From: Planctomycetota bacterium
GTDB lineage: Bacteria; Planctomycetota; UBA1135
NCBI GenBank assembly: GCA_026421205.1
Contig: JAPKBM010000008.1
Coordinates: forward strand, 4,055-68,054
Direction of reading: 5' to 3'
Length of the DNA: 64,000 nucleotides
Part shown: positions 19,646 through 38,200 of the stretch, one piece after another
How the letters are laid out: the number at the start of each line of letters is the position of its first letter
How positions within the stretch are numbered: the first letter of the stretch is position 1
Notes under the pieces: model-generated
Told to the model about the DNA's origin: nothing
Databases searched by the model: none
The model's input: the letters and a program-made list of their open reading frames with translations, nothing else
Program-made: the position numbers and the translations under genes

Positions 19646-19731
19646 TTTCTCCCTTTTTAAATCCTTAAGGTAAAATTCAGTCTCTGACCTCGGAATTGCC
19701 GATAAGTGCTTGCAGCCATCGGCCTCGCCGC

Positions 19732-22344
19732 ATGTCCATCCTCCGCCCACCTCTCCAACGCCTCCACGTTGCGCCTTTCGTCCTAGCACTTGCTGTGGTC
19801 GGCGCACCCTCTTTGATGGGGCAGGATTTCCAAAACATAACGCCGACGGCGGTCCCCTTTATGGAAAACCCAGGCTTTGCAGGAGCCGAGGTTGACTGGG
19901 TGGCGCAAGGTTCCAACCGCACCGTGACTTTTGGAAAAAACGGCGTGCAAATTCTGCAAGCACTTCCATCGGAAGATGAGGAAAACACCACTCCATGGCA
20001 TGTCATCTCATGGACTTTTCCGGGCCAGACGGGGCAGGTGAACTTCCGGGCGGAGGATCCCCTTCCTGGTCAGGTCCATTCTTACTTGGGCTCCGGCCCG
20101 CACTGGAAAATTGCGCGCCAAACATACCGCCGTCTTGTCGCTGAACAAATTTGGCCCGGCATTGACTTACAGTTTGACAGTGCAAGTAGTTCTCTGAAGT
20201 ATCTTTTTCACGTGGACGTGAGTGCAAACCCCCAAGATATCAGCATGCATTTTGATGGATTGGATGCACTTTATGTTGCCGAAGATGGAAGTTTAAAAAT
20301 GACGTCGGCGGCAGGCGTTTTGTCCGACCCGGCTCCTTTGGCCTGGCAAGAAACAACCGATGGCCAACGAATGATTTCCGTTCATTGGAGTGTCAAGCCA
20401 GACAAACAAACGGCGCAATTGATTGTGGGTGATTATGACCCCACACTTCCGCTTTGGGTAGATCCTGAGATGTTGATTTACTGTGGTTTCATCGGCGGAA
20501 CCATGGATGAAGAATCTCGCGGCATTGGCGTGGATGACGCGGGGAACATTTATGTGACGGGTTTAACAGAATCTACCAACCTTCCCGTGCTCAATGCGGA
20601 GCAAAACACTTCGGGCGGTGGAGAATCCGATGTTTGGGTGGCCAAAGTGGACCCTCTCGGCAATCTTCTTTACCTCACCTATCTAGGTGGCACTGGAAAA
20701 GAGTTGCCGTATTCCTTGACCGCCGACGGCTCCGGCAATGCTTACGTTGCGGGAGGTTCCACGTCATCCGATTGGCCCAGTGTTGGAGGCGGTCCGGAGA
20801 TTACTGGTGCTTCCCATGGAAGTTTGGATGGCTTTGTTGCAAAACTAGATCCTTCCGGTCTATTGATTTACTCCGGCATGTTTGGTGGTCTTGAATTTGA
20901 CAGCATCCGGGGCAATACCGTTTCGGCCGACGGCTCTCACTATGTCATTGGCCGGTCCTATACGGAAGATGGCTCTTTTCCTGTTCATAACGGCCCAAGC
21001 TTGAGCCATTCCGGTGGACAAAGTGATATTTTCGTGGCAAAGATTTCACCAGACGGAAGTACTTTAGAGTACAGCGGGTTTTTGGGTGGCGATAAAATTG
21101 ATTATGGACGAGACATTGCTGTGGATGACCGCGGTTTTGCTTACGTGACCGGCTGGACCAACTCCGACGAAAACACTTTCCCGGTCACCGTCGGCCCAGA
21201 CCTCACTTACAACGGCGGTCATAAAGATTTTGGACTTGGGTGGGAGCAATACGGGGACGCTTTCATTGCCAAAATCCTTCCTGACGGAACGGGTTACGTT
21301 TATTGTGGCTACATCGGCGGCGCACGGACGGATGGGGGCTTCGGCGTGCATGTAGATTCATCCGGCGCCGTTTATTTGGCCGGACACACGACGTCGGATA
21401 ATTCCTCCGACCCTGTGGATGGATTATTCCCAGCAAAAATCGGGCCCAGCTTGGTTTATCGTGGAGATGGCGTGAATGAAGACCTGCAGCCTTACGGAGA
21501 CGCATTTGTCGCCAAAGTATCCCGCGATGGCACGGAATTGGAGTTTTGCGGCTATGTCGGCGGTCAGCGCAGTGATCGTGCATGGCGACTTGGCCGGGAT
21601 TCCTTCGGTAATCTTTATCTAGTGGGCAACACACGCTCTCGGCAAAGTGAAGGCTTTCCTCACCAGTCCATTGGCCCGCAAATTTCTTGGGGTGGCAGTG
21701 GTGATGGATTTTTGTCCATGGTCTCCCCCGACGGCCGGAGAATTTTATACAGCACCTACTTCGGCGGAAGTGAGGATGACCTTATTCGTGACGTGGCCAT
21801 CGCCGATGACGGCACCGTGTATGTCACAGGCTGGACAGAATCTAATTTAGATTTCCCTTTGGTGAACGGCCCCTCCACAACCCACCAAGGACTGAAGGAT
21901 GCCTTTGTTGCCCGTATACCCCCCTACCACGTGTTGTTACGTGGTGGAACGGCTGTGGATCCCGCAACCGAAGAACATGCGGATGTCCTCCTTTTAGATG
22001 GAGATCCAGGAGCAGATTGGCAACGCGAAGTAACGGTCGTGGCCAATACCACCCTCACGCTTTCCATTGACGCCACTTCTTGGTTAGCTGGCCAGGCGCT
22101 CACACTCTATCAATGGCCCGCCGATGCCGGCCGACGCTGGGCCAGCCAAACGGAAACAGGTTTTGCGGCTGACTTAGGTCACGCGGCATTCCCACTGGGT
22201 GCTTCCACCCTGGTCACCTCCGGTACAGGTTCTGTCACGGTCAGTTTGTCGGCTGGGGATTGGACTTTACAAGCGGTCATCACGGACCCAGCAAACCCCC
22301 TTGGAAAGAGCTTGTCCAACGCCATCGTGGTTCACGCGCAGTAA
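19732..22344 (+). CDS. secreted SBBP-type beta-propeller repeat protein
   Basis: ATG 19732 gives a signal VAPFVLALAVVGAPSLMGQ. It carries many repeats of the form GG..D.G..IAVD..GN.YVTG.T.S..FP. Confidence 0.7.
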   Translation: MSILRPPLQRLHVAPFVLALAVVGAPSLMGQDFQNITPTAVPFMENPGFAGAEVDWVAQGSNRTVTFGKNGVQILQALPSEDEENTTPWHVISWTFPGQTGQVNFRAEDPLPGQVHSYLGSGPHWKIARQTYRRLVAEQIWPGIDLQFDSASSSLKYLFHVDVSANPQDISMHFDGLDALYVAEDGSLKMTSAAGVLSDPAPLAWQETTDGQRMISVHWSVKPDKQTAQLIVGDYDPTLPLWVDPEMLIYCGFIGGTMDEESRGIGVDDAGNIYVTGLTESTNLPVLNAEQNTSGGGESDVWVAKVDPLGNLLYLTYLGGTGKELPYSLTADGSGNAYVAGGSTSSDWPSVGGGPEITGASHGSLDGFVAKLDPSGLLIYSGMFGGLEFDSIRGNTVSADGSHYVIGRSYTEDGSFPVHNGPSLSHSGGQSDIFVAKISPDGSTLEYSGFLGGDKIDYGRDIAVDDRGFAYVTGWTNSDENTFPVTVGPDLTYNGGHKDFGLGWEQYGDAFIAKILPDGTGYVYCGYIGGARTDGGFGVHVDSSGAVYLAGHTTSDNSSDPVDGLFPAKIGPSLVYRGDGVNEDLQPYGDAFVAKVSRDGTELEFCGYVGGQRSDRAWRLGRDSFGNLYLVGNTRSRQSEGFPHQSIGPQISWGGSGDGFLSMVSPDGRRILYSTYFGGSEDDLIRDVAIADDGTVYVTGWTESNLDFPLVNGPSTTHQGLKDAFVARIPPYHVLLRGGTAVDPATEEHADVLLLDGDPGADWQREVTVVANTTLTLSIDATSWLAGQALTLYQWPADAGRRWASQTETGFAADLGHAAFPLGASTLVTSGTGSVTVSLSAGDWTLQAVITDPANPLGKSLSNAIVVHAQ

Positions 22345-22415: not shown

Positions 22416-22500
22416 ACCAAGAATCTGGTGCTCGGAAAGCGGGGTGAAATTCCCCCACGGATCCGCCACCGTACAGTCGGAAAACGGCCCAGTTTCTGGT
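22416..22500 (+). promoter_or_regulatory. putative cobalamin (B12) riboswitch with a compact core and no large peripheral extension
   Basis: The sequence ctcGGAAAGCGGGGTGAAATTCCCCCACGGATCCGCCACCGTAcag matches the conserved cobalamin-riboswitch core (GGGAA-type junction, P4 hairpin with loop UGAAAUU, and a CCGCCACCGU element like CCCGCCACUGU). It folds into nested helices: 22416-22423/22494-22500, 22425-22428/22489-22492, 22441-22444/22452-22455, 22457-22460/22469-22472 and 22476-22479/22485-22488. Confidence 0.6.
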
Positions 22501-22510
22501 TTCACCTCTC

Positions 22511-23929
22511 ATGTCCGGGCGAGATTCCCGGCTGAAACGCATGAAACATTTTTTGTCGGCCATCGTGGCCTCTTGTGCTCTCGTTGTCCCGACTTTTGGG
22601 CAACAATTTGCTCACGACATTTCCCTGTCCGGCCTTGGGAATGGTGATGCAAAACCCTTTGGCTTGGCGTATGAACCAACCTCCAACCAACTTTACGTTG
22701 CGCTGTCGGGTTCGTTTGGTACACCGAACGATGTGGTTGCTGTGATTGACGTGGCCACGGATACAGTGAAGCAAGTGATTCCCGTCGGCCTTTACCCAGA
22801 AGACATTGCTTTTGTGTATGACGCCAGTGGAAATTTCCGATACGGCGCGGTGACCAATTCCACCAGTGGTTCCGTCACACTTTGGGATGACCAAGATCAA
22901 GTTGTGGCCACGGTGGCGCTTCCGGATCCTTGGATGATGGGCTCTTGTTATCCCTTTGGGATTACGGCCTCCGAAGATGGACAGTTTTTTTACATCACAA
23001 CTCAGGATGGAACGGGTGAAATTTACGCTGTAAATGTTAACACGTTGTCCGTAGATACGACTGCTGGATTGGCCGCACCATTTCGCTCTGGTGGACGCCC
23101 AGTTCACGCAAACGGGACCTTGTTTGCCCCTATGACAACTTATACGGCAACTTGGACGGGTTCGGAGGCAGGCCTTGGCGCTTGCTCCTCTGTCGCAACG
23201 AACTACACCATGCTTCACGTTGAAGATGGAACATCGACCTACCCTAGTGGTCAAGATCTGGTGCAACTCCCCGACGGCCGCATGGTTTGGGGTGGCTTGT
23301 TCGCCGATAATCGGCTGTACATTTTTTCCGCCGACGGCGCACTGGAGCAAACTGTGTCGTGCAGCGCGGGCGCGCATGGTCTTGGTGTGAATGCAACCGG
23401 CGACATCTTGGTGGCCTGCGGCTTGTACGGCAACCTTCTTTCTTTTATTGACCTCAACACGATGAAAGAAATTTCTACCGTAAGCGTAAGCAATGTTGGC
23501 TTAGGTTATTCCATGCCCAACGATGCCGTTTTTGCCGGAGGAAAACTTTACGTCACCTCGCAGGGCACTGAAGAAGTCATGGTTTTTGACAACCTTCCCA
23601 CCGCCGGTCAGTCCAACCATACTGGATCTCTTGTCATCTCCAACCCTTCGCCATCGGCTGGGGAATTCTTGGATGTCTCGGTAAATGGGCAAGGCATCAC
23701 CGCCCTAGTTTCCGCCGATGCCGCTTGGCCCACGATGACAAGCTACGGCTTTCTCATGGACATCGGCCCCAATCTCCGGATTCACGGGCATGGCATAAAC
23801 GCCTTCCAGAAGACCTTCCGCGTCCCTTTGTCGGGATCTGTTGCAGGAACGCATCATTGGATGCAAGGTGCGCAGCTTAATGCGGGCGCTTGGACAACGA
23901 CCGAGCCTCGCGTACTGGTACTTCAGTAA
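22511..23929 (+). CDS. secreted YVTN-type beta-propeller repeat protein
   Basis: ATG 22511 with an alternative ATG at 22541 (MKHFLSAIVASCALVVPTFGQQ signal). Repeats include PFGLAYEPTSNQLYVA...VVAVIDVAT, YPFGITASEDGQFFYITT and GGKLYVTSQGTEEVMVFD. Confidence 0.7.
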   Translation: MSGRDSRLKRMKHFLSAIVASCALVVPTFGQQFAHDISLSGLGNGDAKPFGLAYEPTSNQLYVALSGSFGTPNDVVAVIDVATDTVKQVIPVGLYPEDIAFVYDASGNFRYGAVTNSTSGSVTLWDDQDQVVATVALPDPWMMGSCYPFGITASEDGQFFYITTQDGTGEIYAVNVNTLSVDTTAGLAAPFRSGGRPVHANGTLFAPMTTYTATWTGSEAGLGACSSVATNYTMLHVEDGTSTYPSGQDLVQLPDGRMVWGGLFADNRLYIFSADGALEQTVSCSAGAHGLGVNATGDILVACGLYGNLLSFIDLNTMKEISTVSVSNVGLGYSMPNDAVFAGGKLYVTSQGTEEVMVFDNLPTAGQSNHTGSLVISNPSPSAGEFLDVSVNGQGITALVSADAAWPTMTSYGFLMDIGPNLRIHGHGINAFQKTFRVPLSGSVAGTHHWMQGAQLNAGAWTTTEPRVLVLQ

Positions 23930-23936
23930 CGGCAGA

Positions 23937-24037
23937 TTTTGAGGTCGTTCCTAGTTTAAATATCACTATTTCTTAGCAAAGAGGGGCAGCCCCTTTGCTG
24001 AGAAATAGTGATATTTAAACTAGGAACGACCTCAAAA
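23937..24037. repeat. 101-bp near-perfect palindrome (37-bp perfect arms plus an extended inner stem) between convergent genes
   Basis: The left arm ttttgaggtcgttcctagtttaaatatcactatttct (23937-23973) is the exact reverse complement of 24001-24037. An inner agcaaag/ctttgct plus ggg/ccc pairing closes on a 4-nt loop. The right arm overlaps the stop codon of the minus-strand gene at 24032. Confidence 0.9.
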
Positions 24038-25102
24038 CCCCAATCTATCCAGAACCATATCGCCCCACTCCGTCGTGGAATGCACCCCGGCTTTGAGTCC
24101 TTCTATTTGGTCGGAACATAATAATTCGCGAACCGCCGTTTCCACGGCAATCGAGGCTTCGCGTTCTCCAAGATGCTCCAGCATCATGGCCACCGCATTG
24201 ATGGTCGCCACTGGATTGGCCGTATTCTTCCCGGTTGCCTTCGGCATTGAGCCATGAATGGGCTCAAACAAAGAAAAATGACCTGGGTTGATATTTCCAG
24301 AAGCCGCGACGCCCATGCCGCCTTGCACCATCGCGCCGAGGTCGGTGATAATGTCACCGAATAAATTTGTGGTCACCGCCACATCAAACCACTCTGGATT
24401 TTTCACCATCCACATGCACGCTGCATCAATGTAAGCATGGTCCGTTTTAACGTCAGGGTAATCCTTCGAAACTTCTTCAAAAACGCGTGTGTAAATATCC
24501 TGCGCGCGCACAGCATTTGCCTTGTCAATCAAAGTCAACTGCCGACGAGGTCGAGTCATGGCCAATTCAAATGCGTAACGAATCACGCGCTCCGTACCCG
24601 CGCGCGTGTACTTCATGGGTTGCGATGCCACTTCATTTGGGCCACCCTTATCTTCAAACACTGGGGGGAAAACATAAGCATCTTCTGTGTTTTCCCGAAC
24701 AATCACCATGTCCACATCAGCCGGTTTTTTGTCCTTCAACGGACACCAGCGTTCGTCGTAAAGCTGAATCGGCCGCAAGTTAATGTACAACCCACCTTCC
24801 CAGCGTAACTTGCCAATCACACCACGCTCAATCAAACCAATGGGCGCACGAGGATCACCTATGGCCCCCAACAACAACGCATCATGCTCTTGCGTACGAA
24901 CAAACGCTTCGTCGGGAAAAATCTCCCCACCATCTTCTCCTCCGGTTGCCAACCAATGATCCGTTCCATACGGAAGATCCGTCAACGCACAAGAAAATCC
25001 ATACTTCTCTGATGCGGCGTGCAACACACGCAAACCTTCGCGGACGACTTCAGGGCCGATACCATCACCGGCCAACACTGCAATTTTGTGGGTTTTACTC
25101 AT
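24032..25102 (-). CDS. isocitrate/isopropylmalate dehydrogenase family protein (tartrate/D-malate dehydrogenase-like)
   Basis: Start at ATG 25102 ([20 protein letters not shown]). Motifs are [21 protein letters not shown] and [10 protein letters not shown]. The track ORF to 25258 is an over-extension. Confidence 0.8.
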
Positions 25103-25226
25103 GGGGATTCTCACAAGAGAATCTCGCATTGTACTAGAACGATGCGTTCGCGAAAGAAGCCAACCCCAAAAGATAAAATCAAACCCAAAATCACCGCGCC
25201 CACACCCAGTGCACGAATGCAAGAAG

Positions 25227-25598
25227 TCATGGAGTGAGCAGAACTTCCACCGCGCCATCCAAACGCGCCCACACGGGAATCACCGAAAGCCCCGGATGTT
25301 CCGACGCAATCAAGGCCGCCGCCTGCACACACTGCACTTTTTGCTCTTCATCCGAAATCGGGTTTCCCGCACAACCTGGATGCGCCGCCACGACCACGCC
25401 CTTGGAATCATGCGCTTGCACAGAAATAGCCACGTGCCGACGAACCCCTTCGCTGATGCTGGCCACCACCCCGGCCTCCGTCACCATATCCACATAATCC
25501 ACTCCAAATTCCCGGCGCGTAAACGCGGTCACAGATTCTTGAACGCGGCCGTCCATGCAGTTGACAGCAGTAGCAAAAGTAGAGTTAGGGTCAGCCAT
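25227..25598 (-). CDS. small conserved-looking protein with beta-carbonic-anhydrase-type CxDxR and HxxC motifs (123 aa)
   Basis: ATG-start ORF containing NCMDGRV near the N-terminus and AAHPGCAG about 70 residues later. No other family recognised. Confidence 0.5.
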   Translation of the reverse strand: MADPNSTFATAVNCMDGRVQESVTAFTRREFGVDYVDMVTEAGVVASISEGVRRHVAISVQAHDSKGVVVAAHPGCAGNPISDEEQKVQCVQAAALIASEHPGLSVIPVWARLDGAVEVLLTP

Positions 25599-25617
25599 TG
25601 TCGTGTATATTAAGGAT

Positions 25618-26400
25618 ATGCTCCGCCTTTTTCTCGCCTCCCTTGCACTGATTTCACTCAGCCCTGCGCAATCTCCCGCCCCTTACCAGCACATCAACGT
25701 ATTCGGCGTGCATTGCGTGGCTACTAACAGTGTACCCAAGGCCAAGTTCCATCACATGGCATCGGTCTTGGCGCAATACTTGGACAACGATGAGGATGGA
25801 ATCGTGGATGACCCCAATGTCCTTGCCGCAATGACAGACCCCAATGAACCTCCCTGCCTCATGGCTCTGTTTCAGTCAGAGAATGAAATGGACAGCGTGC
25901 TGAATCAATACGGTCATATTTTAGATCGATACCGATGGCAAAATCTTTTCGCCGACGAATGCCATCCGCAAGGAAGTAGTACGCAAAATGGTTTTGATGC
26001 CACCCTAGAAGAAGTGCTGCACTTAGTCAGTCAACACGGTTGGGCCAACGCCTACCCAGCAGCCTTTGGGGAATACTCCGGTACAGAAATTGCCGACGCC
26101 ATGGATCTTGCGCGCGGTGGCCATTTCAACCGCCCACCCAACAACTACCCTCCCGGTGCATGGTACCACTACGATGACCGAACTTGCCGTTATGGTTGCC
26201 AAGTCACTGAATACTTTTACTGGTTTTTGACCTCTATTCTGGGCGCACAAGATTATCTCGGCCGTGGCAATGAAATTAATAACGAATGGGAACCCAACAC
26301 GGCAGCAAAAGTACAAAGTGTCGATGCCGGCGCATGGGCTTTGTTCCAAGACCCTCGATTTACATTCCCGCAAGTTATTCCTGATGGGAGTTATCGCTAA
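25618..26400 (+). CDS. hypothetical secreted protein (260 aa)
   Basis: ATG 25618 is preceded by aagga. Signal MLRLFLASLALISLSPAQS. No family recognised. Confidence 0.5.
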   Translation: MLRLFLASLALISLSPAQSPAPYQHINVFGVHCVATNSVPKAKFHHMASVLAQYLDNDEDGIVDDPNVLAAMTDPNEPPCLMALFQSENEMDSVLNQYGHILDRYRWQNLFADECHPQGSSTQNGFDATLEEVLHLVSQHGWANAYPAAFGEYSGTEIADAMDLARGGHFNRPPNNYPPGAWYHYDDRTCRYGCQVTEYFYWFLTSILGAQDYLGRGNEINNEWEPNTAAKVQSVDAGAWALFQDPRFTFPQVIPDGSYR

Positions 26401-26440
26401 ATCAAGCTCCAGTCCGTCTCTAGATTAACTCGATCACCTC

Positions 26441-26677
26441 CTAGGTGACTTCGGCAGAGTCATAGGTTCCATGATGATTCGCCACAAGGTGGTCATGCGC
26501 CGCTTCGCTTTCCCAACCTGCGTAAATCCGAGTGACATCGGGTTATTCTTGACTCTAGTCACCCACTTGAAAGAGAAACCCGGGGCAGCCTTTTAAAGAC
26601 TCCCAGTCCAAACGAGCCTTTTCAAAATCAGCGCGCTTTTCCGGTGACATGGTGCATCTTGTTTCCTTGAGAATCAT
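26441..26677 (-). pseudogene. decayed small ORF (ABM/DUF4937-like alpha+beta barrel remnant) with two in-frame stops
   Basis: One reading frame gives MILKETRCTMSPEKRADFEKARLDWESLKGCPGFLFQVGD*SQE*PDVTRIYAGWESEAAHDHLVANHHGTYDSAEVT*. The internal stops are TAG at 26555-26557 and TAA at 26543-26545. The W..L...PGF and WES.EAH pattern is typical of small monooxygenase-like barrels. Confidence 0.45.
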
Positions 26678-26702
26678 GGAAGCACTTTGTCTCTGCTAGA
26701 GT

Positions 26703-28211
26703 TTGCGTGTGCGAAATTTCCTCCTCCTAGCCGGCCTCAGCTCCTTCCTTGGAAGTTGTACGATTTTCTCCTCTTGGATGGATTCAAAACCAACGCCACC
26801 CAACATCGTCATCATTTACACCGACGACCAAGGCTGGGGGGACATCGGCGTACAAGGGGCACAGGGCTTTGAAACGCCAAACTTGGACCGCTTGGCCGCC
26901 GAAGGCACACGTTTTACGAGTTTCTATGTTGCCCAACCCGTGTGTTCCGCATCCCGCGCGGCACTGCTAACCGGTTGCTACCCCAACCGCATCGGCATTC
27001 ATGGAGCCCTGGGCCCAAGGAATACGCACGGGATTCATGCGGATGAAACCACCCTAGCGGAATTATGTCAATCCAAAGGCTATACCACCGGCATGTTTGG
27101 AAAATGGCACTTGGGGTATCAAGCGCAGTTTCTTCCCGCCCATCACGGCTTTGACGAATCCTATGGCATTCCTTACTCCAACGACATGTGGCCCTGGCAT
27201 CCGAATTACGCGCAGTTTTCCGACCCCGTAGAGAAGAGAAAGCGCGGTTATCCTGATTTGTTTTTATTTGAAGGCCTTGACATCGTGGACCCCGAAGTCA
27301 CTGCGGAAGATCAAATGCATTTCACACAGGAGTTCGGCGACCGTGCGGTTTCCTTTATTCAAAAGAATGCGGACAAGCCTTTCTTTCTTTATCTCGCCCA
27401 CCCCATGCCCCATGTTCCCCTGTTCACAAAAGAAGAAAGCGTCGGCCGAAGTGAACAAGGGCGTTACGGTGATGTTCTGGAAGAGATTGATGATTCCGTC
27501 GGAAAAGTCATGCAAGCTTTAGAAGAAGCGGGTGTGGCCGACAACACGCTGGTGATCTATGCTTCCGACAACGGCCCTTGGCTTTCTTATGGGAATCATG
27601 CCGGCTCCACGGGTCCTCTACGAGAGGGCAAAGGCACCACCTTTGAGGGAGGCGTGCGTGTTCCGTGTTTGATGCGGCTTCCAGGTCAAATTCCAGCCGA
27701 CCGTGTGAACGACACACCTTGGATGACCATTGATATTTTCCCTACGGTGGCGAATCTTATTCAGGCAAATCTTCCATCACTGCCAATCGACGGAAAAAAT
27801 GCATGGCCACTTTGGTCGGGAAAAAATGATTCAGAGTCCCCACAAAAAACGTACTTCTTCTATTACCGGAACAACGAACTGCAGGCGTTAAGGCAAGGGC
27901 CCTGGAAACTGCACTTTCCCCACGGTTATCGCTCCATGGAGGGAAAAGATATCGGTGCCGATGGCACCCCGGGTTCTTATGACTATTCCGTAAAAACTGA
28001 TTTGGCACTTTATAATTTGTCGCGGGACATCTCGGAAAGTCTCAGTGTGAAAACCAGCTACCCCGAACTCATGGAGCAACTGCTTCGAACCGCCGAAACC
28101 ATGCGCGCCAAGCTTGGTGATAGCCTCAACGACTTACCTCAAGGCTCAGAAACGCGGGAAGCTGGGCGCGTTGCTAATCCAACGATCGAAGCTGTTCCGT
28201 CAAAGGAATAA
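26703..28211 (+). CDS. arylsulfatase-family sulfatase with a lipoprotein-like signal
   Basis: Motifs are PPNIVIIYTDDQGWGD, the sulfatase signature CSASRAALLTG (C-x-A-x-R form), GKWHLG and SDNGP. The N-terminus is LLLAGLSSFLGSC. The start is non-ATG (TTG 26703 or GTG 26709). Confidence 0.85.
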   Translation: MRVRNFLLLAGLSSFLGSCTIFSSWMDSKPTPPNIVIIYTDDQGWGDIGVQGAQGFETPNLDRLAAEGTRFTSFYVAQPVCSASRAALLTGCYPNRIGIHGALGPRNTHGIHADETTLAELCQSKGYTTGMFGKWHLGYQAQFLPAHHGFDESYGIPYSNDMWPWHPNYAQFSDPVEKRKRGYPDLFLFEGLDIVDPEVTAEDQMHFTQEFGDRAVSFIQKNADKPFFLYLAHPMPHVPLFTKEESVGRSEQGRYGDVLEEIDDSVGKVMQALEEAGVADNTLVIYASDNGPWLSYGNHAGSTGPLREGKGTTFEGGVRVPCLMRLPGQIPADRVNDTPWMTIDIFPTVANLIQANLPSLPIDGKNAWPLWSGKNDSESPQKTYFFYYRNNELQALRQGPWKLHFPHGYRSMEGKDIGADGTPGSYDYSVKTDLALYNLSRDISESLSVKTSYPELMEQLLRTAETMRAKLGDSLNDLPQGSETREAGRVANPTIEAVPSKE

Positions 28212-28303
28212 GCGCCACTTTCCGCCTCCATGCCCTTCTAAAGATTTCAGATGGGAAGAAATGCTACATCAATGTAGTTTTTCTGTTCCTATGCAATCAA
28301 AGA

Positions 28304-30286
28304 CTAAGAAGCGACTACGAAATCAAGTTCCGGAGAATACGCACAGATCTTTCCTGCAAAAGCACTTGCGGCCACCGTCAAGGGACTAGCCAGATAAAGA
28401 CTGCCTGGGCCGGAACGACCGGAAAAGTTGCGATTAATTGCCGAAACAGTCACCTGATCCTTGGCATCACTCACACCAGGGCCACACCCAATGCACGCCC
28501 CACACCCCGGGTTCACCAATTGCACCCCCACTTCCCGAAAGAGTTGGGTCCATCCCTGGGCGTCGGCGTAATCTTGCACCGCCTTCGACCCGAACTGAAT
28601 AAAGAACTCGGTGCCTTCGGCTACTTGAACGCCGGCATCCTTTGCCGCCTGGCAGACTTCGGCGTACATTCTCATGTCATCCACTTTGCCCGCCGTGCAG
28701 GAACCGCCATAAGCGATATCAATGGAAATAGGATCTAAGTCCGAGACGTTTTTCCCGTAGGTCGGGTCGCCGGGCTCCGCCACCATGGGCACGATTGCGG
28801 ACAGGTCCACCCCATGCACACCGCCGTCATAGTGCGCGCCTGTATCTGCGGACACAAAGGTTGCCTCAATTTCTTCGCCAGTTTTCCCAGGCCGACGTTC
28901 TGCAAGCCACTGCGCAAGGGCTTCATCGCCTTCGCAAATTCCGGTACGCCCCGTGCACTCTGTGGCCATGTTGCATAGTGTGGCGCGCTCGTCCACCGAA
29001 AGGCTTTCCAATCCGCTGCCGCCAAATTCCATGGAACGGTTCAGCGTGTCTTCGCGTTTTGCAAAGGTATCCAAAATGAACAGCATGACGTCTTTCGCCG
29101 AACAACCCGGCGCCAATGACCCCGTTAATTCAAAGCGAATGCTCTGCGGAACGCGCACAAAGGTAAAACCACTTTGTGCTAAAGCCGCATATTCCGTGGC
29201 ACCCACACCATAAGCCAACGCATTGGAAGCGCCGCCCATGCACGTATGAGAATCCGTGGCTTGCACAAAATCACCCGGGTCAATCAAGGTCTCGCGCGCG
29301 ATTTGATGGCAGATTCCAGGACTTACGCCATCTTTTGCCTGAAAATCCAACACACCCGTGTGTTTCTGGAACTCTCTCTGTAAATCCCGCATGGTTTGGA
29401 TTTTAGAAACAAAGGGCGCAAAGCGAGCAACGCCGTCGGCGTACAAAAGATGGTCTTCAAATACGGCTAACTTGTCCGCATTTTTCACCGTGTACTTTTC
29501 ACCGTACTCTGCTTTCAAAAAAGTATGTACTTGCGCTGATGTGAATTCATGACTAAACCCGGCGTCTACTTTAGCCAGCACCGCATCGCCCGACGCCACA
29601 AAGGCACCTTCTTTCCCAGGGTTGAGCATCTTCGTTGCAATCATCTTCTCCGCCATGTTCATGGGTCGATTCCCCGTGGCATTGGGAGGCAAAGTAATCT
29701 CCCCCGATTGCACTTTCTTCGAAAATGCAAAGAGTCCCCCTTCTTCAATAATCACTTGTGTGACTGGATCATAACCCTGGCTAAACTCCGACAAGTCCAC
29801 CGTTTCGCTGGCCTGCATGCGCTGCAGCACATCATGGCCCGCCATAAGCTGACCCAAATTTATGTTATTGCGCTCATGAATCGGCGCAAAACTTGCAGCA
29901 AATACATAACGAATACCCGACCACCGTTCACATTGCGCAGCCGTCTCCCGACTAGAACCAGTCCCTTTTCGCAAACCTGAAACGATGGCTTCAAAATTTC
30001 CGTCCATCAATTCGCGTTCACCTACCACACGGTTGCCGTCGGCGTCTACTAAACCGGCATAGGCATTCTTAGCAATCTCTTCGGGCAAGTGATCGAAGCA
30101 AACCCACGCCGGAGTCATGACGTCGGTGTTGATGTCATCCAACAAATCATCCACCGAGAGGTTCTCCATGCGCAAATTCAACCCGTCATGCAACTGGCGG
30201 CGAATGAGTTCAATATCCTTGGTCAGAAAAAGCACGCGCTTTTTCTGATCCAGGCTGATTTTCAGGTTAGGTTTGGAGGAGTTCAT
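28304..30286 (-). CDS. aconitase/isopropylmalate-dehydratase family protein with the swivel (LeuD-like) domain at the N-terminus
   Basis: The N-terminus has DDINTDVMTPA, GTGSSRETA and ERNNINLGQL (small-subunit motifs). These are followed by GICHQ, DSHTCMGG, GGSCTAGK, NPGCGACIG and NRNFSGRSG (catalytic domains 1-3). Confidence 0.8.
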   Translation of the reverse strand: MNSSKPNLKISLDQKKRVLFLTKDIELIRRQLHDGLNLRMENLSVDDLLDDINTDVMTPAWVCFDHLPEEIAKNAYAGLVDADGNRVVGERELMDGNFEAIVSGLRKGTGSSRETAAQCERWSGIRYVFAASFAPIHERNNINLGQLMAGHDVLQRMQASETVDLSEFSQGYDPVTQVIIEEGGLFAFSKKVQSGEITLPPNATGNRPMNMAEKMIATKMLNPGKEGAFVASGDAVLAKVDAGFSHEFTSAQVHTFLKAEYGEKYTVKNADKLAVFEDHLLYADGVARFAPFVSKIQTMRDLQREFQKHTGVLDFQAKDGVSPGICHQIARETLIDPGDFVQATDSHTCMGGASNALAYGVGATEYAALAQSGFTFVRVPQSIRFELTGSLAPGCSAKDVMLFILDTFAKREDTLNRSMEFGGSGLESLSVDERATLCNMATECTGRTGICEGDEALAQWLAERRPGKTGEEIEATFVSADTGAHYDGGVHGVDLSAIVPMVAEPGDPTYGKNVSDLDPISIDIAYGGSCTAGKVDDMRMYAEVCQAAKDAGVQVAEGTEFFIQFGSKAVQDYADAQGWTQLFREVGVQLVNPGCGACIGCGPGVSDAKDQVTVSAINRNFSGRSGPGSLYLASPLTVAASAFAGKICAYSPELDFVVAS

Positions 30287-32590: not shown

Positions 32591-34000
32591 ATGCCCTTCC
32601 TGCACCAATCCTCTGCTAAGGATGCCGCTCAACACGGCCTCGCTTGGCTTGAAGTCCCGGCGGATCGCTTCACGCCCGTCGGACTTTTCCTCTCCATGCG
32701 CGCAAGCGGGCGTCGGCCTTGCCTATTGGAATCCGCCGAAGGCCCTCTGCGTTTGGCCCGCTGGTCTTTGCTGGGCGTCAATCCGGCAGAACACGTAGAA
32801 GTTTTTGCAGGAGATCCCACGCCGACGTTTTCCCAAGAGATTTCCACGTCACCCCCCGCCCACTTGCCACCTTTTTGCGGCGGGTGGATTGGCTCCTTCT
32901 TTTATGAATGGGCAGCCCAACAAGAACCGACGGTTTCGGTCGTTACGGCTGGACCTTGGAAGGGGAAGGTGGCGGATTTTCAACGCTACCCGCAAGTTTT
33001 GGCACTGGATCACGCCAACCAAAAAGTTTTCTGCATCGCTCCTTGCAAAGAAGCGGATTTTGAAACGACCCTGCTGGCCTTAGAAGCCTTAGCCAACGAC
33101 TTGCATCACCCCTATCTAGAGGCCGACGCCTTCACCTGCGCCGACCTTACGCCTAAACACTCCATGGCAAAGGAGGATTTTTTGACAGGGGTGGAATCCT
33201 TGCGTCAGGCAATCTCTGAAGGAGAGATTTTCCAAGCGGTGCTCTCCCAACGTTTTGACTTGGACTTTGAAGGGGACCCTTTTCAACTTTATCGAGCTCT
33301 GCGGCTTTGCAATCCTTCGCCGCATATGTTCTTTTACGAGAGCCCTGATTTCATTTTGGTCGGCTCTTCACCAGAACGCTTGGTTTCGGTCCTCGACGGC
33401 CGTGTAGAAAACCGACCCATCGCGGGAACGCGAGCGCGCAGTGACCAACCGGAAGAAGATGACCGCTTGGGTGCAGAACTACAAAATGATCCCAAAGAGC
33501 GTGCGGAACATGACATGCTCGTGGACTTAGCGCGCAATGACCTCGGAAGAATTGCCCGAACCGGCACCGTCTGCGTTCGAGAACATGCCGCCTTAGAAAA
33601 ATTCGCGCGTGTGCAACATTTGGTCAGTCGTGTGGACTGTGAACTTGCAACCTCCTTCACCCCCATGGATGCCCTCGCCGCTTCCTTCCCTGCAGGAACC
33701 GTCAGCGGTGCGCCCAAAATAAGGGCTATGCAGTTGCTTTCCGCGTTAGAACCCGAAGCCCGCGGGCCCTATGCCGGTGCATTTGGCTACATTGACGCCT
33801 CGGGAAATTTGGACATGGCCATCACCATTCGCACCTTCGCCATTCGAAACAACAAGCTTTCCGTTCAGGCGGGTGCCGGCATTGTGCACGCATCCAAACC
33901 AGAACGGGAATACACCGAAACGATGGAAAAAGCCGACGCCCTTTTCCGCGCCGTTCACATTGCCGCATCCGGCATCTTCTCTAGCCCCGAAACCAGATGA
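32591..34000 (+). CDS. trpE: anthranilate synthase component I
   Basis: Motifs are LESAEG, QAVLSQRF, IAGTRAR, GAPKIRAMQLL and GPYAGAFGY. Confidence 0.9.
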   Translation: MPFLHQSSAKDAAQHGLAWLEVPADRFTPVGLFLSMRASGRRPCLLESAEGPLRLARWSLLGVNPAEHVEVFAGDPTPTFSQEISTSPPAHLPPFCGGWIGSFFYEWAAQQEPTVSVVTAGPWKGKVADFQRYPQVLALDHANQKVFCIAPCKEADFETTLLALEALANDLHHPYLEADAFTCADLTPKHSMAKEDFLTGVESLRQAISEGEIFQAVLSQRFDLDFEGDPFQLYRALRLCNPSPHMFFYESPDFILVGSSPERLVSVLDGRVENRPIAGTRARSDQPEEDDRLGAELQNDPKERAEHDMLVDLARNDLGRIARTGTVCVREHAALEKFARVQHLVSRVDCELATSFTPMDALAASFPAGTVSGAPKIRAMQLLSALEPEARGPYAGAFGYIDASGNLDMAITIRTFAIRNNKLSVQAGAGIVHASKPEREYTETMEKADALFRAVHIAASGIFSSPETR

Positions 34001-34587
34001 TCCTCCTCATCGACAACTACGATTCCTTCACGTACAACTTGTACCAGTCCTTAGCCTCGCAAGGTGCTGAAGTTCAAGTGCATCGCAATGATGCATTGAC
34101 CAAAGAGGAAGCCCTTGCCCTCAATCCATCGGCGATTATTTTCTCTCCTGGACCCGGTCGGCCGAAAAATTCTGGCATTTGCCCGGAGTTACTTAAAGAA
34201 ATTCCTGATTCGCTTCCATTTCTAGGCATTTGCTTAGGGCATCAAGCCTTGGTGGAATCCTTAGGAGGGCACCTTGAGTTAGACCCTGTTCCCACGCACG
34301 GAAAAAGTTCTTTGATGCATCATGATGGGGAATGTTCGCTATTTCAAGATCTTCCCAACCCGTTTCCAGCCGGACGCTATCACTCTTTGCGCGCCGTGCG
34401 CAGTGACTTGCCGGATTGCCTGCATTTGAGGTCTTGGACGGAAGATGGCTTGGTCATGGCTGTGGAACACAAAACACGGCCATGGTTTGGCCTGCAGTTT
34501 CACCCGGAATCTATCTTGACTCCGCAGGGAGACAAAATGATGGCCCACTTCCTTCAAAAAACAGGCATCGGCGTCAGCACACGATGA
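33997..34587 (+). CDS. trpG: anthranilate synthase component II (glutamine amidotransferase)
   Basis: Motifs are ILLIDNYDSFTYNLYQ, PFLGICLGHQ and LQFHPES. ATGA overlap with trpE. Confidence 0.9.
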   Translation: MILLIDNYDSFTYNLYQSLASQGAEVQVHRNDALTKEEALALNPSAIIFSPGPGRPKNSGICPELLKEIPDSLPFLGICLGHQALVESLGGHLELDPVPTHGKSSLMHHDGECSLFQDLPNPFPAGRYHSLRAVRSDLPDCLHLRSWTEDGLVMAVEHKTRPWFGLQFHPESILTPQGDKMMAHFLQKTGIGVSTR

Positions 34588-35603
34588 ATCTTCAAGAGGC
34601 CGGCCAGCATGCTATGAATGGCGGCTTCTTCAGCCGGCAGGAGACCTTTAACTTGCTGAGTTCTTCCTTGAGAGAAGGAGCGAACGGGACGGCTTTGGAA
34701 CTTTTTCTCACGGGCCTTGCGAATCGCGGGGAAACGGCCGAAGAAATCCAAGGAGGCGCCGAAGCCTTGCGAGCCGCTTGCGTTCCTTTTGTGCATGATG
34801 CCGCCGACGCCCTGGACACGTGCGGGACCGGCGGAGATGGGCTGGGGTCCTTCAATCTTTCCACGGCGTCGGCCTTGGTGGCCGCGGGTGCCGGTGCCAA
34901 AGTCATCAAACACGGCAATCGCTCCGTTTCCTCTCAATGTGGGTCGGCTGATTTGCTGGAAGCGGCCGGAGTGCATTTAGAATTGAATCCAGAACAAGCG
35001 CGCCGCGTTTTCGAAACCGTTGGCATGGTATTTTTGTACGCCCCTACGTTTCATCCGGCCATGCGTTTTGTTGCTCCGGTTCGCAAGAAGATGGGTCGGC
35101 GAACGCTGTTTAATTATTTGGGGCCTCTTTGTTCTCCGGGAAATGTGCAACGCCAATTGTTGGGCGTCGGCGTAGCCAAGATGTTGCCCGCCTATGCCGA
35201 AGTCTTGCGGGGCTTGGGCGTTCAACGCGCTTATGTGGTACACGGCGCCGGCGGTGCGGATGAACTGACTCCGGCGGGGCACAATCAAGTTTTTGTCGTA
35301 GGAGATGCGCCCAAAGTTTCTCTGGATGCCAAGGCATTAGGCTTACCGACGGCTTCCGTGATGGAACTAGAGGGCGGAGACCCTTCGGTAAATTTAAAAC
35401 TCTTGCATGATTTATTGCATGGAGAAAAGAATGCAATTCGAACCGCCGTTTTACAAAACACGGCGGCGGCACTTTTGTTAAATGGTGCGGCAAAGCACGC
35501 CAAAGAGGGTGTGGCGATGGCCGAAGAGTCTTTGGATTCTGGCGCAGCACGGATCATCTTGCAGCGCTTGATTCAGAAAAGCCAAGAGGAGTCCCAGCGA
35601 TGA
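34584..35603 (+). CDS. trpD: anthranilate phosphoribosyltransferase
   Basis: ATG 34584 (MNLQEAGQHAM) with an ATGA overlap on trpG. Motifs are DTCGTGGDG and KHGNRSVSSQCGSADLLEA. The track ORF from 34416 is an over-extension. Confidence 0.9.
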   Translation: MNLQEAGQHAMNGGFFSRQETFNLLSSSLREGANGTALELFLTGLANRGETAEEIQGGAEALRAACVPFVHDAADALDTCGTGGDGLGSFNLSTASALVAAGAGAKVIKHGNRSVSSQCGSADLLEAAGVHLELNPEQARRVFETVGMVFLYAPTFHPAMRFVAPVRKKMGRRTLFNYLGPLCSPGNVQRQLLGVGVAKMLPAYAEVLRGLGVQRAYVVHGAGGADELTPAGHNQVFVVGDAPKVSLDAKALGLPTASVMELEGGDPSVNLKLLHDLLHGEKNAIRTAVLQNTAAALLLNGAAKHAKEGVAMAEESLDSGAARIILQRLIQKSQEESQR

Positions 35604-36394
35604 AATTGGCGGACACGCGTTTAGGCCCCATCCTGGAAGCCGTCACCGCCCGAGCAAAAGTCCGAGAGGCAACGGGACGTGGTTTCAAAGAAGAAGCTGT
35701 CCATCGCACTTCCCAAGGGAAAAGATCGGTCGAGTCCTTAAAGGAAAAGTCACTCGCCATCATTGCCGAATGCAAACGTCGGTCGCCCTCGGCAGGAAAC
35801 TTGGCTGATGAGCCCGATTTACTCAAGCGAGCTTTACGCTATGCCAAGGAAGGTGCTTCTGTAATTTCCATCTTGACGGAACAAGATGGCTTCGGCGGAA
35901 GCTTGGAAGATTTCGTTCACCTCCAAGCCGTTTCTTCGCCGCGTTTGCGAAAAGATTTCATCTTGAACTCTTTCATGGTGGATGAATCTGCGCGCGTGGG
36001 GGCGGATTTTATTTTGCTCATGGCTGTTTGCCTGGAAGGAAGTCAACTCTCGGAATTGTGCGCTCAAGCGCAAGAGCTGGAAATGGCTGTTTTGCTGGAA
36101 GTTCATGATGAAGAAGAACTGTCGCGGGCTATCAACGCAAAGCCAGATTGCATTGGGGTGAATGCGCGAGATTTACGAACCTTTGATGTGGACCTGCAAA
36201 CGGCAGAGACCTTACTTCCCATTATTCCATCGGGCTTTGTCAAAATTGCGGAAAGCGGACTCCAAACGTATGACGATTTACTTCGCATGAAAAGTGCTGG
36301 AGCCGATGCTGCTTTGATTGGAACCGCTTTCATGAAAGACCCTGGAAAACTGGGCCGGTGGACGAAAAACTTGCGGGAGGACTTCCATGCATAA
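35600..36394 (+). CDS. trpC: indole-3-glycerol phosphate synthase
   Basis: Motifs are IIAECKRRSPSAG, RKDFI, GVNARDL and ESGL. ATGA overlap with trpD. Confidence 0.88.
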   Translation: MKLADTRLGPILEAVTARAKVREATGRGFKEEAVHRTSQGKRSVESLKEKSLAIIAECKRRSPSAGNLADEPDLLKRALRYAKEGASVISILTEQDGFGGSLEDFVHLQAVSSPRLRKDFILNSFMVDESARVGADFILLMAVCLEGSQLSELCAQAQELEMAVLLEVHDEEELSRAINAKPDCIGVNARDLRTFDVDLQTAETLLPIIPSGFVKIAESGLQTYDDLLRMKSAGADAALIGTAFMKDPGKLGRWTKNLREDFHA

Positions 36395-37034
36395 CCCCCC
36401 TCGCTCTTTCCCGAAGATTAAAGTTTGCGGCCTCACTTCCGCCGAAGATGCGCGACACGCCATTCAATCCGGTGCCGACGCCGTCGGAGTGGTTGGGGTG
36501 CTCTCTTCCCCGCGTGGCATCTCCGCAGAAAAAGCCCGTGAAGTTTTCCAAGGACTCTCCAACAACCTTTGGAAAATTGCCGTTTTCGTTAACCCGTCTC
36601 CTGCCGAAGCTCTTTCGTTTCTAAAAAGAGCCGACGCCAACGCGGTGCAACTTTGTGGCGAGGAAAACACGGAGGACTGGAATGACTTCCCTTTTCCTGT
36701 TTTTAAAAAATGGGGCGTGGCAGAGTCCGAAGAAGGCATGCATCAACGTTGGAAACAAATTTGCTGTGGATTTATTTTGGATTCGCCAAACTCCCCGGGT
36801 GGAACAGGAGAAACAGTAGACCCCGTTCTTGCGCAAAGATTCGCCGCACAAGCACCTTGTCTTTTAGCCGGGGGGCTCCATGCAGAAAACGTCGGCGAAA
36901 AAGTTGCGCAAATTCGACCGGCTGGGGTGGACGCATCCTCGGCTCTTGAAGACTCTCCTGGAATCAAAAACAAAGAGCACGTCCAAGTCTTTATTCAGTC
37001 GGCGCAACGCGCATTTCAGAGGATAGAACAATGA
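36387..37034 (+). CDS. trpF: phosphoribosylanthranilate isomerase
   Basis: Motifs are [33 protein letters not shown] and LAGGL. It overlaps trpC by 8 nt. Confidence 0.85.
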
Positions 37035-38200
37035 AAGGGCCCTACTTCGGCGATTTCGGCGGTCAATTTGCCCCAGAAACACTGATGCCTTCTTTGCAGG
37101 AATTAGAATCCGCCTGGCAATCTATCGGGCAAAGTCCCTCCTTCCGAAAAGAGTTCAACGATCTACTCAAGAACTATGCCGGACGGCCGACGCCACTTAC
37201 GCCATGTCGACGACTTGGAGAGGCTTGGGGATTGGAGCTTTGGCTCAAGAGGGAGGACCTTTTGCATACGGGTGCGCACAAGTTGAACAATGCGCTCGGT
37301 CAGGCTTTGCTGGCCAAGCACATGGGGAAAACGCGCATTCTTGCGGAAACGGGCGCGGGGCAACACGGTGTGGCCACGGCAACTGTTTGTGCTCTGCTTG
37401 ATTTGGAATGCGTGGTGTACATGGGGTCGGTTGACGCCGTTCGGCAAAAAACCAATGTGCTGCGCATGGAGCTTTTGGGTGCGCGTGTGGAAATTGTGGA
37501 ACACGGTCAGAAAACTTTAAAGGATGCTGTCAATGAAGCCCTCCGCGCATGGACCGGAGACCCCGACGCGCATTATCTGTTAGGTTCCGCACTCGGGCCC
37601 CACCCTTTTCCCGCATTGGTGGCCGACTTTCAGCAAGTCATTGGCAAGGAAGCAGTACAACAAATTGCAGACCAAGCCGATGCCTCACCCGACCTCGTGG
37701 TGGCCTGCGTGGGCGGCGGGTCTAACGCCATTGGGATTTTCAGAGCTTTTGAAGAAGATGCATCCGTCCGTTTAGTTGGCGTCGAAGCCGGCGGAGATGG
37801 AGTAGAAACAGGGCGGCACGCGGCACGTTTTTCCGGAGGAACGCCGGGCGTTTTGCATGGGTGCCGTACCTGGCTTCTTCAAAACGAAGACGGCCAAATT
37901 TTGCCGACGCATAGCGTCAGTGCCGGCTTGGATTATCCGGCCGTCGGCCCCGAACATGCAGCGCTCCATGCGTTGGGTCGCGCAGAATACGCGTCGGCCA
38001 CCGATGAAGATGCTTTAACCGCCCTTCAAGCCCTTTGTAAGAGAGAAGGGATTTTGCCGGCCTTAGAATCCAGTCATGCTTTGGGTTGGGTGCAGCAAAA
38101 TCAAGACGACCTGCGCGGAAAGCGTGTACTCGTCAACTTAAGCGGGCGCGGCGACAAAGACCTGGCCATAATTTTCGAAACACTGGGGCTTGGCACATGA
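37031..38200 (+). CDS. trpB: tryptophan synthase beta chain
   Basis: Motifs are [19 protein letters not shown] (PLP Lys), [10 protein letters not shown] and GLDYP. Confidence 0.92.

Follow-up and report, generated by a model that had tools for sequence, protein, structure and literature searches.

A class II cobalamin riboswitch precedes the gene of a putatively exported beta-propeller, a candidate corrinoid-acquisition protein of the Planctomycetota

The stretch of DNA considered here, referred to throughout as the window, comprises 64,000 nucleotides (nt) from a Planctomycetota bacterium (GenBank assembly GCA_026421205.1, contig JAPKBM010000008.1, positions 4,055 to 68,054 of the forward strand). 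A leader of approximately 196 nt lies within it between the stop codon at 22344 of an open reading frame (ORF) for an 882-amino acid (aa) protein with SBBP repeats and an ORF ending at 23929, which encodes a beta-propeller protein with an export signal (Table 1). An original prediction, made from the letters of the DNA, had drawn the core of a cobalamin (vitamin B12) riboswitch in this leader and proposed the propeller as a candidate B12-capture protein; the sequences and coordinates that it quoted were found to be correct on re-reading the window. The window RNA is a genuine cobalamin riboswitch of class II (AdoCbl-II, or AdoCbl-variant), within the clan of that name, and its association with the propeller gene extends across a family of distantly related loci.

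Table 1. Features of the riboswitch and propeller gene in the window, with partner genes at related loci (locus handles begin with L)
Feature	Position	Strand	Sequence or remark
Whole aptamer with extended closing helix	22416-22500	+	ACCAAGAAUCUGG (22416-22428) facing CCAGUUUCUGGU (22489-22500)
Outer closing strands	22416-22423 and 22494-22500	+	ACCAAGAA opposite UUCUGGU
Inner closing pairs	22425-22428 and 22489-22492	+	CUGG with CCAG
Rfam AdoCbl-II (RF01689) aptamer match	22422-22495	+	39.8 bits; gathering score 36.5
Segment before the junction		+	GCUCG, preceding GAAAG (22435-22439)
Junction GAAAG and P4 hairpin	22435-22456	+	P4 at 22440-22456, CGGGG-UGAAAUU-CCCCC; loop UGAAAUU at 22445-22451
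P5 stem and loop L5	22457-22472	+	ACGG/CCGU; L5 AUCCGCCA (22461-22468); 98-99% of cells paired in relatives
B12 box	22475-22485	+	AGUCGGAAAAC; near-invariant across aligned leaders
Linker J1/13	22501-22514	+	14 nt, aptamer to regulatory hairpin; holds a non-conserved in-frame ATG (22511)
Regulatory hairpin P13 and loop L13	22515-22531	+	CCGG/CCGG; L13 GCGAGAUUC (22519-22527)
L13 side of the kissing loop	22519-22525	+	six pairs with 22461-22466; A22522 unpaired
Coding sequence, YVTN-type seven-bladed beta-propeller with C-terminal beta-sandwich, putatively secreted	22541-23929	+	462 aa
Predicted Sec signal peptide	22541-22603	+	MKHFLSAIVASCALVVPTFGQ; from the homologue pattern, cleavage site putative
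Near-perfect palindrome, 101 bp	23937-24037		48-nt arms, 96% complementary; 5-nt loop; AT-rich
btuF/btuC/btuD-like rows after the propeller	L043 6518-9008; L044 1814-4154; L049 2008-2961	same strand	L049, Peripla_BP_2 only
Small barrel gene, predicted lipidated	L013 1794-2438		equivalents in L014, L020-L025, L027, L028, L030-L034 and L036
thiC	L039 7718-9064; L042 7581-8921; L043 9044-10741; L044 4216-5520; L045 6574-8028		

A scan of the window with 4227 Rfam families (cmscan) returned a single match at gathering level, that of RF01689, also called the 'AdoCbl-variant' motif and originally described in marine sequences (PMC2864571). The match spanned model positions 1-81 of 81 with an E-value of 5e-6 for 64 kb, and this model outscored that of the classic cobalamin riboswitch (RF00174) at the site. 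Of the Rfam covariance models put forward with the original prediction as a check, the AdoCbl variant thus gave the gathering-level match, and the cobalamin core which the prediction had claimed was upheld, both by a full-length match above the threshold of Rfam and by its conservation upstream of all core family members examined. The junction GAAAG, the P4 loop UGAAAUU, L5 (AUCCGCCA) and the B12 box (AGUCGGAAAAC) form columns that are invariant, or nearly so, in an alignment of 24 leaders; the P5 region is drawn slightly differently in the structure line of Rfam itself. Only 2 nt separate the 3' strand of P5 from the B12 box, so that no P6 hairpin or extension can be present; this interval is the shortest among 38 leaders, and none of the roughly 50 leaders examined has a more reduced aptamer than the window. 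The 5' flank of the core pairs with the stretch following the B12 box at -18.2 kcal/mol, compared to -9.9 kcal/mol for shuffled sequences (p = 0.007). As an RNA, the window riboswitch is unexceptional within a known Rfam family. A match to the flavin mononucleotide (FMN) riboswitch (RF00050) at 22426-22497, overlapping the cobalamin element, was rejected at 19.4 bits (gathering score 66.2); it is ascribed to a shared hairpin of the GGGUGAAAUUCC type.

Approximately 98 full-length homologues of the downstream protein were found at 36-97% identity, and those sources that name an organism are almost all metagenome-assembled genomes of the Planctomycetota. A first set of 38 genomic loci encoding homologues was supplemented with the two that encode the most divergent ones of the first protein search (30-32% identity), giving 40. 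In 13 of the 38 loci, a gathering-level match to RF00174 (32-82 bits) immediately precedes the homologue, and both of the additional loci also have one (15 of 40 in total); the same core was visible by eye in the remaining leaders. A leader covariance model was built from 24 leaders, with 17 of the 40 loci being outside the training set. It gave exactly one match per source, 41 of 41 for the window and the 40 loci, always on the strand of the propeller gene and just upstream of it, and none elsewhere in 494 kb. The pairing of riboswitch and propeller is thereby maintained from 97% down to approximately 30% protein identity.

The predicted pairings were evaluated in a MAFFT alignment of the 24 leaders. 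Helices P4, P5 and P13 together with the kissing loop presented standard pairs in 93.6% of cells, compared to 36-54% in slid controls, in which the partners had been moved by one to three columns, and changes on both sides occurred in 10 of the 19 pairs; the alignment of 40 leaders agreed. P4 was paired in 93% of cells, with double-sided changes in three of its five pairs, and in the P13 stem such changes were seen among relatives for all four pairs. Different clades use unrelated sequences to build the closing helices P1/P3, which pair better than shuffled sequences (p <= 0.05) in 22 of the 24 leaders. Covariation in homologous leaders, which had been set out as a check, was found for helices P1/P3, P4 and P13.

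Downstream of the aptamer, the regulatory hairpin is shared by class-I-type and class-II-type leaders alike. The original prediction had drawn it, with correct sequence and coordinates, as CCGGG-CGAGAUU-CCCGG, and had suggested that a GGCG there could kiss a CGCC of the P5 loop. The existence of such a kiss was confirmed by RNAalifold, which recovered the pairing of L5 with the L13 loop unprompted, and by compensatory changes; its extent was redrawn as six pairs between 22461-22466 and 22519-22525 that are interrupted by an unpaired A. The pairs are A22461-U22525, U22462-A22524, C22463-G22523, C22464-G22521, G22465-C22520 and C22466-G22519. The kissing loop was paired in 94% of cells with 24 leaders and in 90% with 40, the latter having been aligned by a model from which the kiss was absent; one of its positions is occupied by U-A in 22 leaders, C-G in 8 and A-U in 4, and another by G-C in 20, A-U in 7 and G-U in 6. 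A kissing loop between L5 and L13, always broken by an unpaired nucleotide, is how class II cobalamin riboswitches act (PMC5028336), and the unpaired purine A22522 agrees with this rule. P13 ends 9 nt before the ATG at 22541, and hence lies within the region that a 30S subunit must occupy; in relatives, a Shine-Dalgarno motif (GGAGG or AGGAG) is placed 0-2 nt past the 3' arm of P13. No sigma-70 promoter or intrinsic terminator was found in the leader. As a separate observation, UCAUG at 22508-22512 can pair with CAUGA at 22539-22543, a weakly supported pairing that would mask the true start.

The closest known system is env8HyCbl, a class II riboswitch (RF01689, clan CL00101), with which the window RNA shares the four-way junction, GAAAG, the UGAAAUU loop of P4, the B12 box, the lack of a P6 extension, an L5-L13 kiss broken by unpaired purine and a marine setting (PMC5028336). 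The two differ in detail: env8 has two unpaired purines, compared to one in the window, and a J1/13 of 7 nt rather than 14, and its ribosome-binding site (RBS) is located inside L13, whereas that of the relatives described here lies just 3' of P13 and none is recognizable in the window (PMC5028336). An RBS within L13 was thus not encountered in this family; it is a trait of the env8 example and not of the Rfam aptamer family. With respect to P6, the window differs from env8HyCbl in having no hairpin at all, its 2 nt being all that remain. The window RNA shares both clan and core with the classic cobalamin riboswitch of class I (RF00174), to which one clade of the orthologous leaders belongs at 45-82 bits; these class I leaders possess the same P13/L13 platform, and the window differs from them by the missing P6 extension.

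The aptamers of this one gene family form a range, with full class I (RF00174, up to 82 bits) at one end, the minimal form of the window at the other and intermediate forms between them. The P6 region of the class-I-type leaders, which form one clade on a rough neighbour-joining tree of the proteins, measures 67-110 nt; outside of that clade it measures 16-68 nt, and in the window 2 nt. The intermediate leaders, with P6 hairpins of 16-68 nt, fall below gathering level in both Rfam models. Given that the aptamer types follow the protein tree, the periphery of the aptamer appears to have changed along the history of the gene itself while the P13/L13 platform remained unchanged.

In approximately 30 homologues the N-termini line up with the Met encoded at 22541, which identifies this ATG as the start codon. 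The ATG at 22511, taken as the first candidate in the original prediction, is a non-conserved codon of the linker. Of the 472-aa propeller with signal peptide that had been proposed, the export signal and the fold were retained, and the length was corrected to 462 aa; the 472-aa gene model called from ATG 22511 for the 97%-identical homologue P0001 is, on the evidence of the aligned sequences, probably 10 residues too long. All homologues begin with a hydrophobic N-terminus of approximately 20 aa ending in AQ, followed by a conserved QFSHDISLSGL. Since no N-terminal Cys is conserved (30 homologues), the protein would not be a lipoprotein. NCBIfam recognized the YVTN repeat (TIGR02276) at 46.5 bits (cut-off 27.85), while the matches to Pfam, namely DUF5074, DUF6923 and NHL, were all sub-threshold, and no match to a catalytic family was found in Pfam or NCBIfam. 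AlphaFold2, supplied with the family alignment, modelled a seven-bladed propeller at residues ~22-355 and an immunoglobulin-like (Ig-like) beta-sandwich at ~362-462, with a predicted local distance difference test score (pLDDT) of 93.2 and a predicted template modelling score of 0.90. The top match in the PDB was 1l0q, an archaeal S-layer protein with a YVTN propeller and a PKD domain (E = 4e-16 by profile, 4e-15 by Foldseek), and the other best matches in sequence and fold were hydrazine synthase beta, YncE and assorted WD40 proteins. The family forms a distinct and tight group of about 100 clusters, of 458-500 aa, under riboswitch control; GAVTNSTSGS, LPDP and DGSG are among its invariant loops.

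Whether orthologs are found beside btuB or btuFCD had been raised as a further check, and the answer differed with distance. Neither was found within about 6 kb of the close orthologues at 38 loci, which have housekeeping or unrelated neighbours encoding a HEAT-repeat protein, a two-component system, cyanophycin synthetase, an M56 peptidase, a kinase and a methyltransferase; likewise, no TonB-dependent BtuB was found within about 5-6 kb of the propeller gene, either in the window or at 50 loci. btuFCD-like genes were, on the other hand, found after the propeller in three distant relatives. These relatives came from a profile search of 1.84 billion representative proteins for the same architecture, from which nine were looked up. 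RF00174 was matched upstream of six of the nine (33-95 bits), and one further leader was cut by the end of its contig. In two of them (L043 and L044), the propeller gene is first in a same-strand row, followed by genes for Peripla_BP_2, FecCD and ABC_tran proteins, which NCBIfam matches best to BtuF, to BtuC and to the ATPase of a corrinoid ABC (ATP-binding cassette) transporter; in a third (L049), it is followed by a Peripla_BP_2 gene, where the contig ends. A cobalamin riboswitch lies upstream in L043 and L049, the truncated leader being that of L044. These propeller-btuFCD operons constitute the strongest available argument for a role in corrinoid acquisition, and the presence of btuF- or btuFCD-like genes after the propeller, with no outer-membrane transporter, suggests that the family acts at or before the periplasmic step.

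A different partner was found among the close relatives. At 16 of the 38 close loci, a gene for a protein of approximately 214 aa follows the propeller on the same strand after approximately 35 nt; it is not present in the window. In this protein a lipobox (GSC) is conserved and the C-terminus reads HF. Its family counts only 36 clusters, the named sources of which are almost always Planctomycetota, and several of these clusters sit on contigs equal in length to ones that bear the propeller. AlphaFold2 modelled it as a small beta-barrel (pLDDT 82.7), for which Foldseek returned Pla, the transmembrane domain of OmpA, NspA, OmpW and OprG as the nearest structures, and it is accordingly predicted to be a small lipidated barrel of the outer membrane.

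At five distant loci, the propeller or btuFCD genes are closely followed by thiC in the same orientation. A search for a thiamine pyrophosphate (TPP) riboswitch upstream of thiC found none, with a threshold of E <= 0.1 for L039 and of E <= 0.01 for L042-L045. An assignment of these genes to the lower-ligand enzymes BzaB or BzaF was rejected, as all five scored above the ThiC and below the BzaB cut-off of NCBIfam.

A precedent for a propeller in B12 uptake is provided by BtuG of Bacteroides (PDB 3DSM), a B12-binding surface lipoprotein whose gene, like the B12 transport genes that accompany it, follows a B12 riboswitch (PMC6143338); its B12 site is the central cavity of the propeller (PMC10404256). 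The window protein shares with BtuG an exported seven-bladed propeller positioned behind a B12 riboswitch and, at the level of its family, linkage to B12 transport genes. BtuG, and lipoprotein-capped TonB transporters in general, have been reported as exclusive to the Bacteroidetes (PMC6143338, PMC10404256). Whereas BtuG carries a lipobox Cys, the window family has no conserved lipobox and presents Sec signal peptides ending in AQ and followed by QF; it differs further in its additional C-terminal beta-sandwich, in its Planctomycetota host and in its partners, which are btuFCD-like genes or the small outer-membrane barrel and never a TonB-dependent BtuB (50 loci). Homology with BtuG was pursued by profile, single-sequence and Foldseek searches and was rejected, only generic propellers having been returned; the weak match to DUF5074 (20.5 bits against 27.2) could not be tied to BtuG from the literature. 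When fold, homology, lipobox and BtuB neighbour are compared, the window protein has the fold alone in common with BtuG. The original prediction of a propeller from a repeat family different from that of BtuG was hence borne out, as no sequence similarity is detectable and the generic fold is all that they share. The repeat signature and best matches are instead those of YVTN propellers (TIGR02276), such as the Methanosarcina S-layer protein (1l0q) and YncE of Escherichia coli, and the arrangement of propeller and Ig-like domain is as in 1l0q. To our knowledge, no YVTN protein of this type (1l0q, YncE) has been linked to B12. A full-text literature search returned nothing linking YVTN or planctomycete propellers to cobalamin, or a planctomycete B12 riboswitch to a propeller.

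Given these associations, the class II cobalamin riboswitch and its kissing-loop platform (22416-22531) probably control the translation of a single gene for corrinoid acquisition (22541-23929). When intracellular B12 is plentiful, it would be bound by the four-way-junction aptamer and would bridge the junction and the kiss, thereby docking L5 (AUCCGC) on L13 (GCGaGAU). The docked complex would fill the landing site of the ribosome and turn the gene off; because P13 ends so close to the start codon, we infer that docking onto L13 blocks initiation by occupying this site. With B12 scarce, the aptamer would be unliganded and the hairpin undocked, leaving L13 free and the gene translated. Class II cobalamin RNAs generally prefer methyl- or hydroxocobalamin, and either would be the presumed form of the ligand here. 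The product would be exported by the Sec pathway and have an extracytoplasmic role in the acquisition of corrinoids. Most probably it would bind them, either in the periplasm or on the surface of the cell, and pass them to an importer of the BtuFCD type; in one subclade, the propeller and the small barrel would probably effect this capture jointly at the outer membrane. The propeller is a strong candidate for a B12-scavenging protein of a new kind because nearly all of its relatives carry the switch and some share an operon with a B12 importer. The capture role advanced in the original prediction thus stands, as a candidate, on the riboswitch link across the full span of identities and on the btuF- or btuFCD-like genes of the three distant relatives.

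A number of observations weigh against this interpretation. With respect to the protein, no BtuG chain (e.g., 3DSM) was present among the PDB sequence matches at E-values up to 1 by profile and up to 10 by single sequence, nor among the top 50 structural matches of Foldseek, and the invariant columns of the alignment offer no conspicuous His or Cys that might serve to bind the cobalt. The window copy has no transporter gene nearby, the btuFCD-like genes of the distant loci all score below the equivalog cut-offs of NCBIfam, and two of the nine distant relatives (L047 and L048) have no detectable riboswitch. With respect to the RNA, no Shine-Dalgarno motif is recognizable in the window copy, and with the RBS of relatives located just 3' of P13 instead of in L13, occlusion would have to occur by proximity. 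Furthermore, the minimum free energy (MFE) structure of the single leader is not the riboswitch fold, and its z-score of -0.63 is unremarkable; support for the riboswitch is consequently drawn from the covariance model and the comparative data and not from thermodynamics. The MFE fold is dominated by pairing of the 5' strand of the aptamer at 22421-22436 (GAAUCU..GCUCGG) with the P13/L13 region at 22515-22527 (CCGGGCGAGAUUC). A conserved role for this pairing was set aside, as no conservation was apparent by eye in one relative (L001); the complementarity is probably incidental, and could be an alternative pairing of the apo state.

Among the alternatives, the one that survives best accepts the riboswitch and regards the propeller as an accessory of uptake that does not bind corrinoids, namely a docking protein or scaffold that serves BtuF or a component of the outer membrane, or an extracellular enzyme that processes corrinoids or frees them from carriers. 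YVTN propellers serve as generic scaffolds for interactions or enzymes, as exemplified by the S-layer protein 1l0q, hydrazine synthase beta and YncE, and this would be compatible with the dedicated barrel partner at 16 of 38 loci and with the failure to find a BtuG-like sequence signature. However, the btuF operons already hold a periplasmic binder and offer no other candidate for the capture step, and the use of the propeller cavity as the B12 site in BtuG (PMC10404256) provides a precedent, by analogy only, for direct binding. An accessory function is hence considered unlikely.

Somewhat less probable still is that the propeller has no part in uptake, and that it substitutes for or bypasses a B12-dependent process, in the manner of metE or nrdAB, or is a surface protein tuned to B12 status. 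B12-independent isozymes are the second large class of genes under the control of B12 riboswitches, and the gene stands alone among acs, lpxA and leuB in the window and at most of the close loci. The protein appears to be secreted, however, and belongs to no recognized catalytic family; there is no evident extracytoplasmic B12-dependent enzyme for it to replace, and the co-operonic btuFCD-like genes of the distant relatives point to transport.

It is very improbable that the riboswitch activates its gene. In such a scheme, B12 would draw GGU at 22498-22500 into the extended P1 and break a helix masking the start, formed by GUUUCA at 22499-22504 and UGAAAC at 22533-22538, with which the extension of P1 shares a 3-nt overlap. 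Activating corrinoid riboswitches have been reported (PMC10327014). The masking helix, however, is tentative: it is not significant in the window (p about 0.1), nor is it general in the family, where an outer helix between the pyrimidine tract of J1/13 and the Shine-Dalgarno or start region reached significance in just 8 leaders out of 35 scored. The conserved and covarying feature is instead the L5-L13 kiss beside the start site, an arrangement that in this class brings about repression (PMC5028336), and uptake genes are normally repressed by B12. Finally, a chance match or a decayed, non-functional remnant might be suspected from a score only 3 bits above the gathering threshold, the unremarkable fold of the single sequence and the lack of a Shine-Dalgarno sequence in the window copy. 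Against both stand conservation at the same position in 41 of 41 sources, covariation in every helix and in the tertiary kiss, and the strong RF00174 matches in orthologous leaders; on these comparative data the chance match can be regarded as already refuted, and a decayed remnant is extremely improbable.

With capture of corrinoids as the favoured function, a broader proposal may be advanced, more tentatively and at somewhat less than even confidence. The propeller family could represent an unrecognized class of extracytoplasmic corrinoid-binding proteins, evolved independently of BtuG, that would perform the capture or outer-membrane step of B12 uptake in marine Planctomycetota with no need for a TonB-dependent BtuB. 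Its partner would be BtuFCD in some lineages and the dedicated small lipidated barrel in others, and its leaders would have moved from one class of aptamer architecture to the other, I or II, on an unchanged kissing-loop platform. Over much of the ocean growth is limited by B12, and how the abundant, uncultured marine Planctomycetota obtain it is poorly understood. A secreted family that is almost always under a B12 riboswitch, and sometimes co-operonic with a BtuFCD-like importer, offers a concrete candidate for a new component of this uptake; if correct, it would join BtuG as only the second propeller linked to B12, one that seems to have arisen separately. The interest of the locus thus resides both in a protein family that is marked by its riboswitch and in a natural series of aptamer variants. 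Some 50 orthologous leaders represent classic class I, intermediate and minimal class II forms on one conserved kissing-loop platform, and this series should be useful in studies of the evolution of ligand selectivity and of peripheral domains.

In the window, the propeller gene stands alone among housekeeping genes, with lpxA, acs and the SBBP propeller gene upstream and a convergent leuB downstream; the order lpxA-acs-propeller-leuB is repeated at many loci. Farther out are a trp operon, the leuCD-like aconitase gene, ftsH, folP and glmM. The regions 32591-39000 and 24032-30286 present an ordinary chromosomal setting, in which the row trpE-G-D-C-F-B-A is complete, and leuB and the fused leuCD-like gene of the aconitase family are on the minus strand. 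As had been stated originally, there is no transporter or cob gene near the propeller, no B12-related gene having been recognized among the window ORFs scanned. The 882-aa protein encoded directly upstream (19696-22344, + strand) is secreted-looking, contains DUF7948 and SBBP beta-propeller repeats, and has the same position at seven other loci; its gene precedes the riboswitch, and it is presumably not B12-regulated for that reason.

The 101-bp palindrome by which the gene had been said to be bounded was found after the end of the ORF, in the interval that separates the propeller gene from the convergent leuB, and has no counterpart elsewhere in the window. No T-tract terminator was predicted at this site. 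The palindrome, separate from the switch, probably marks the end of the transcription unit; it could act as a terminator in both directions, or represent a small mobile element of palindromic form.

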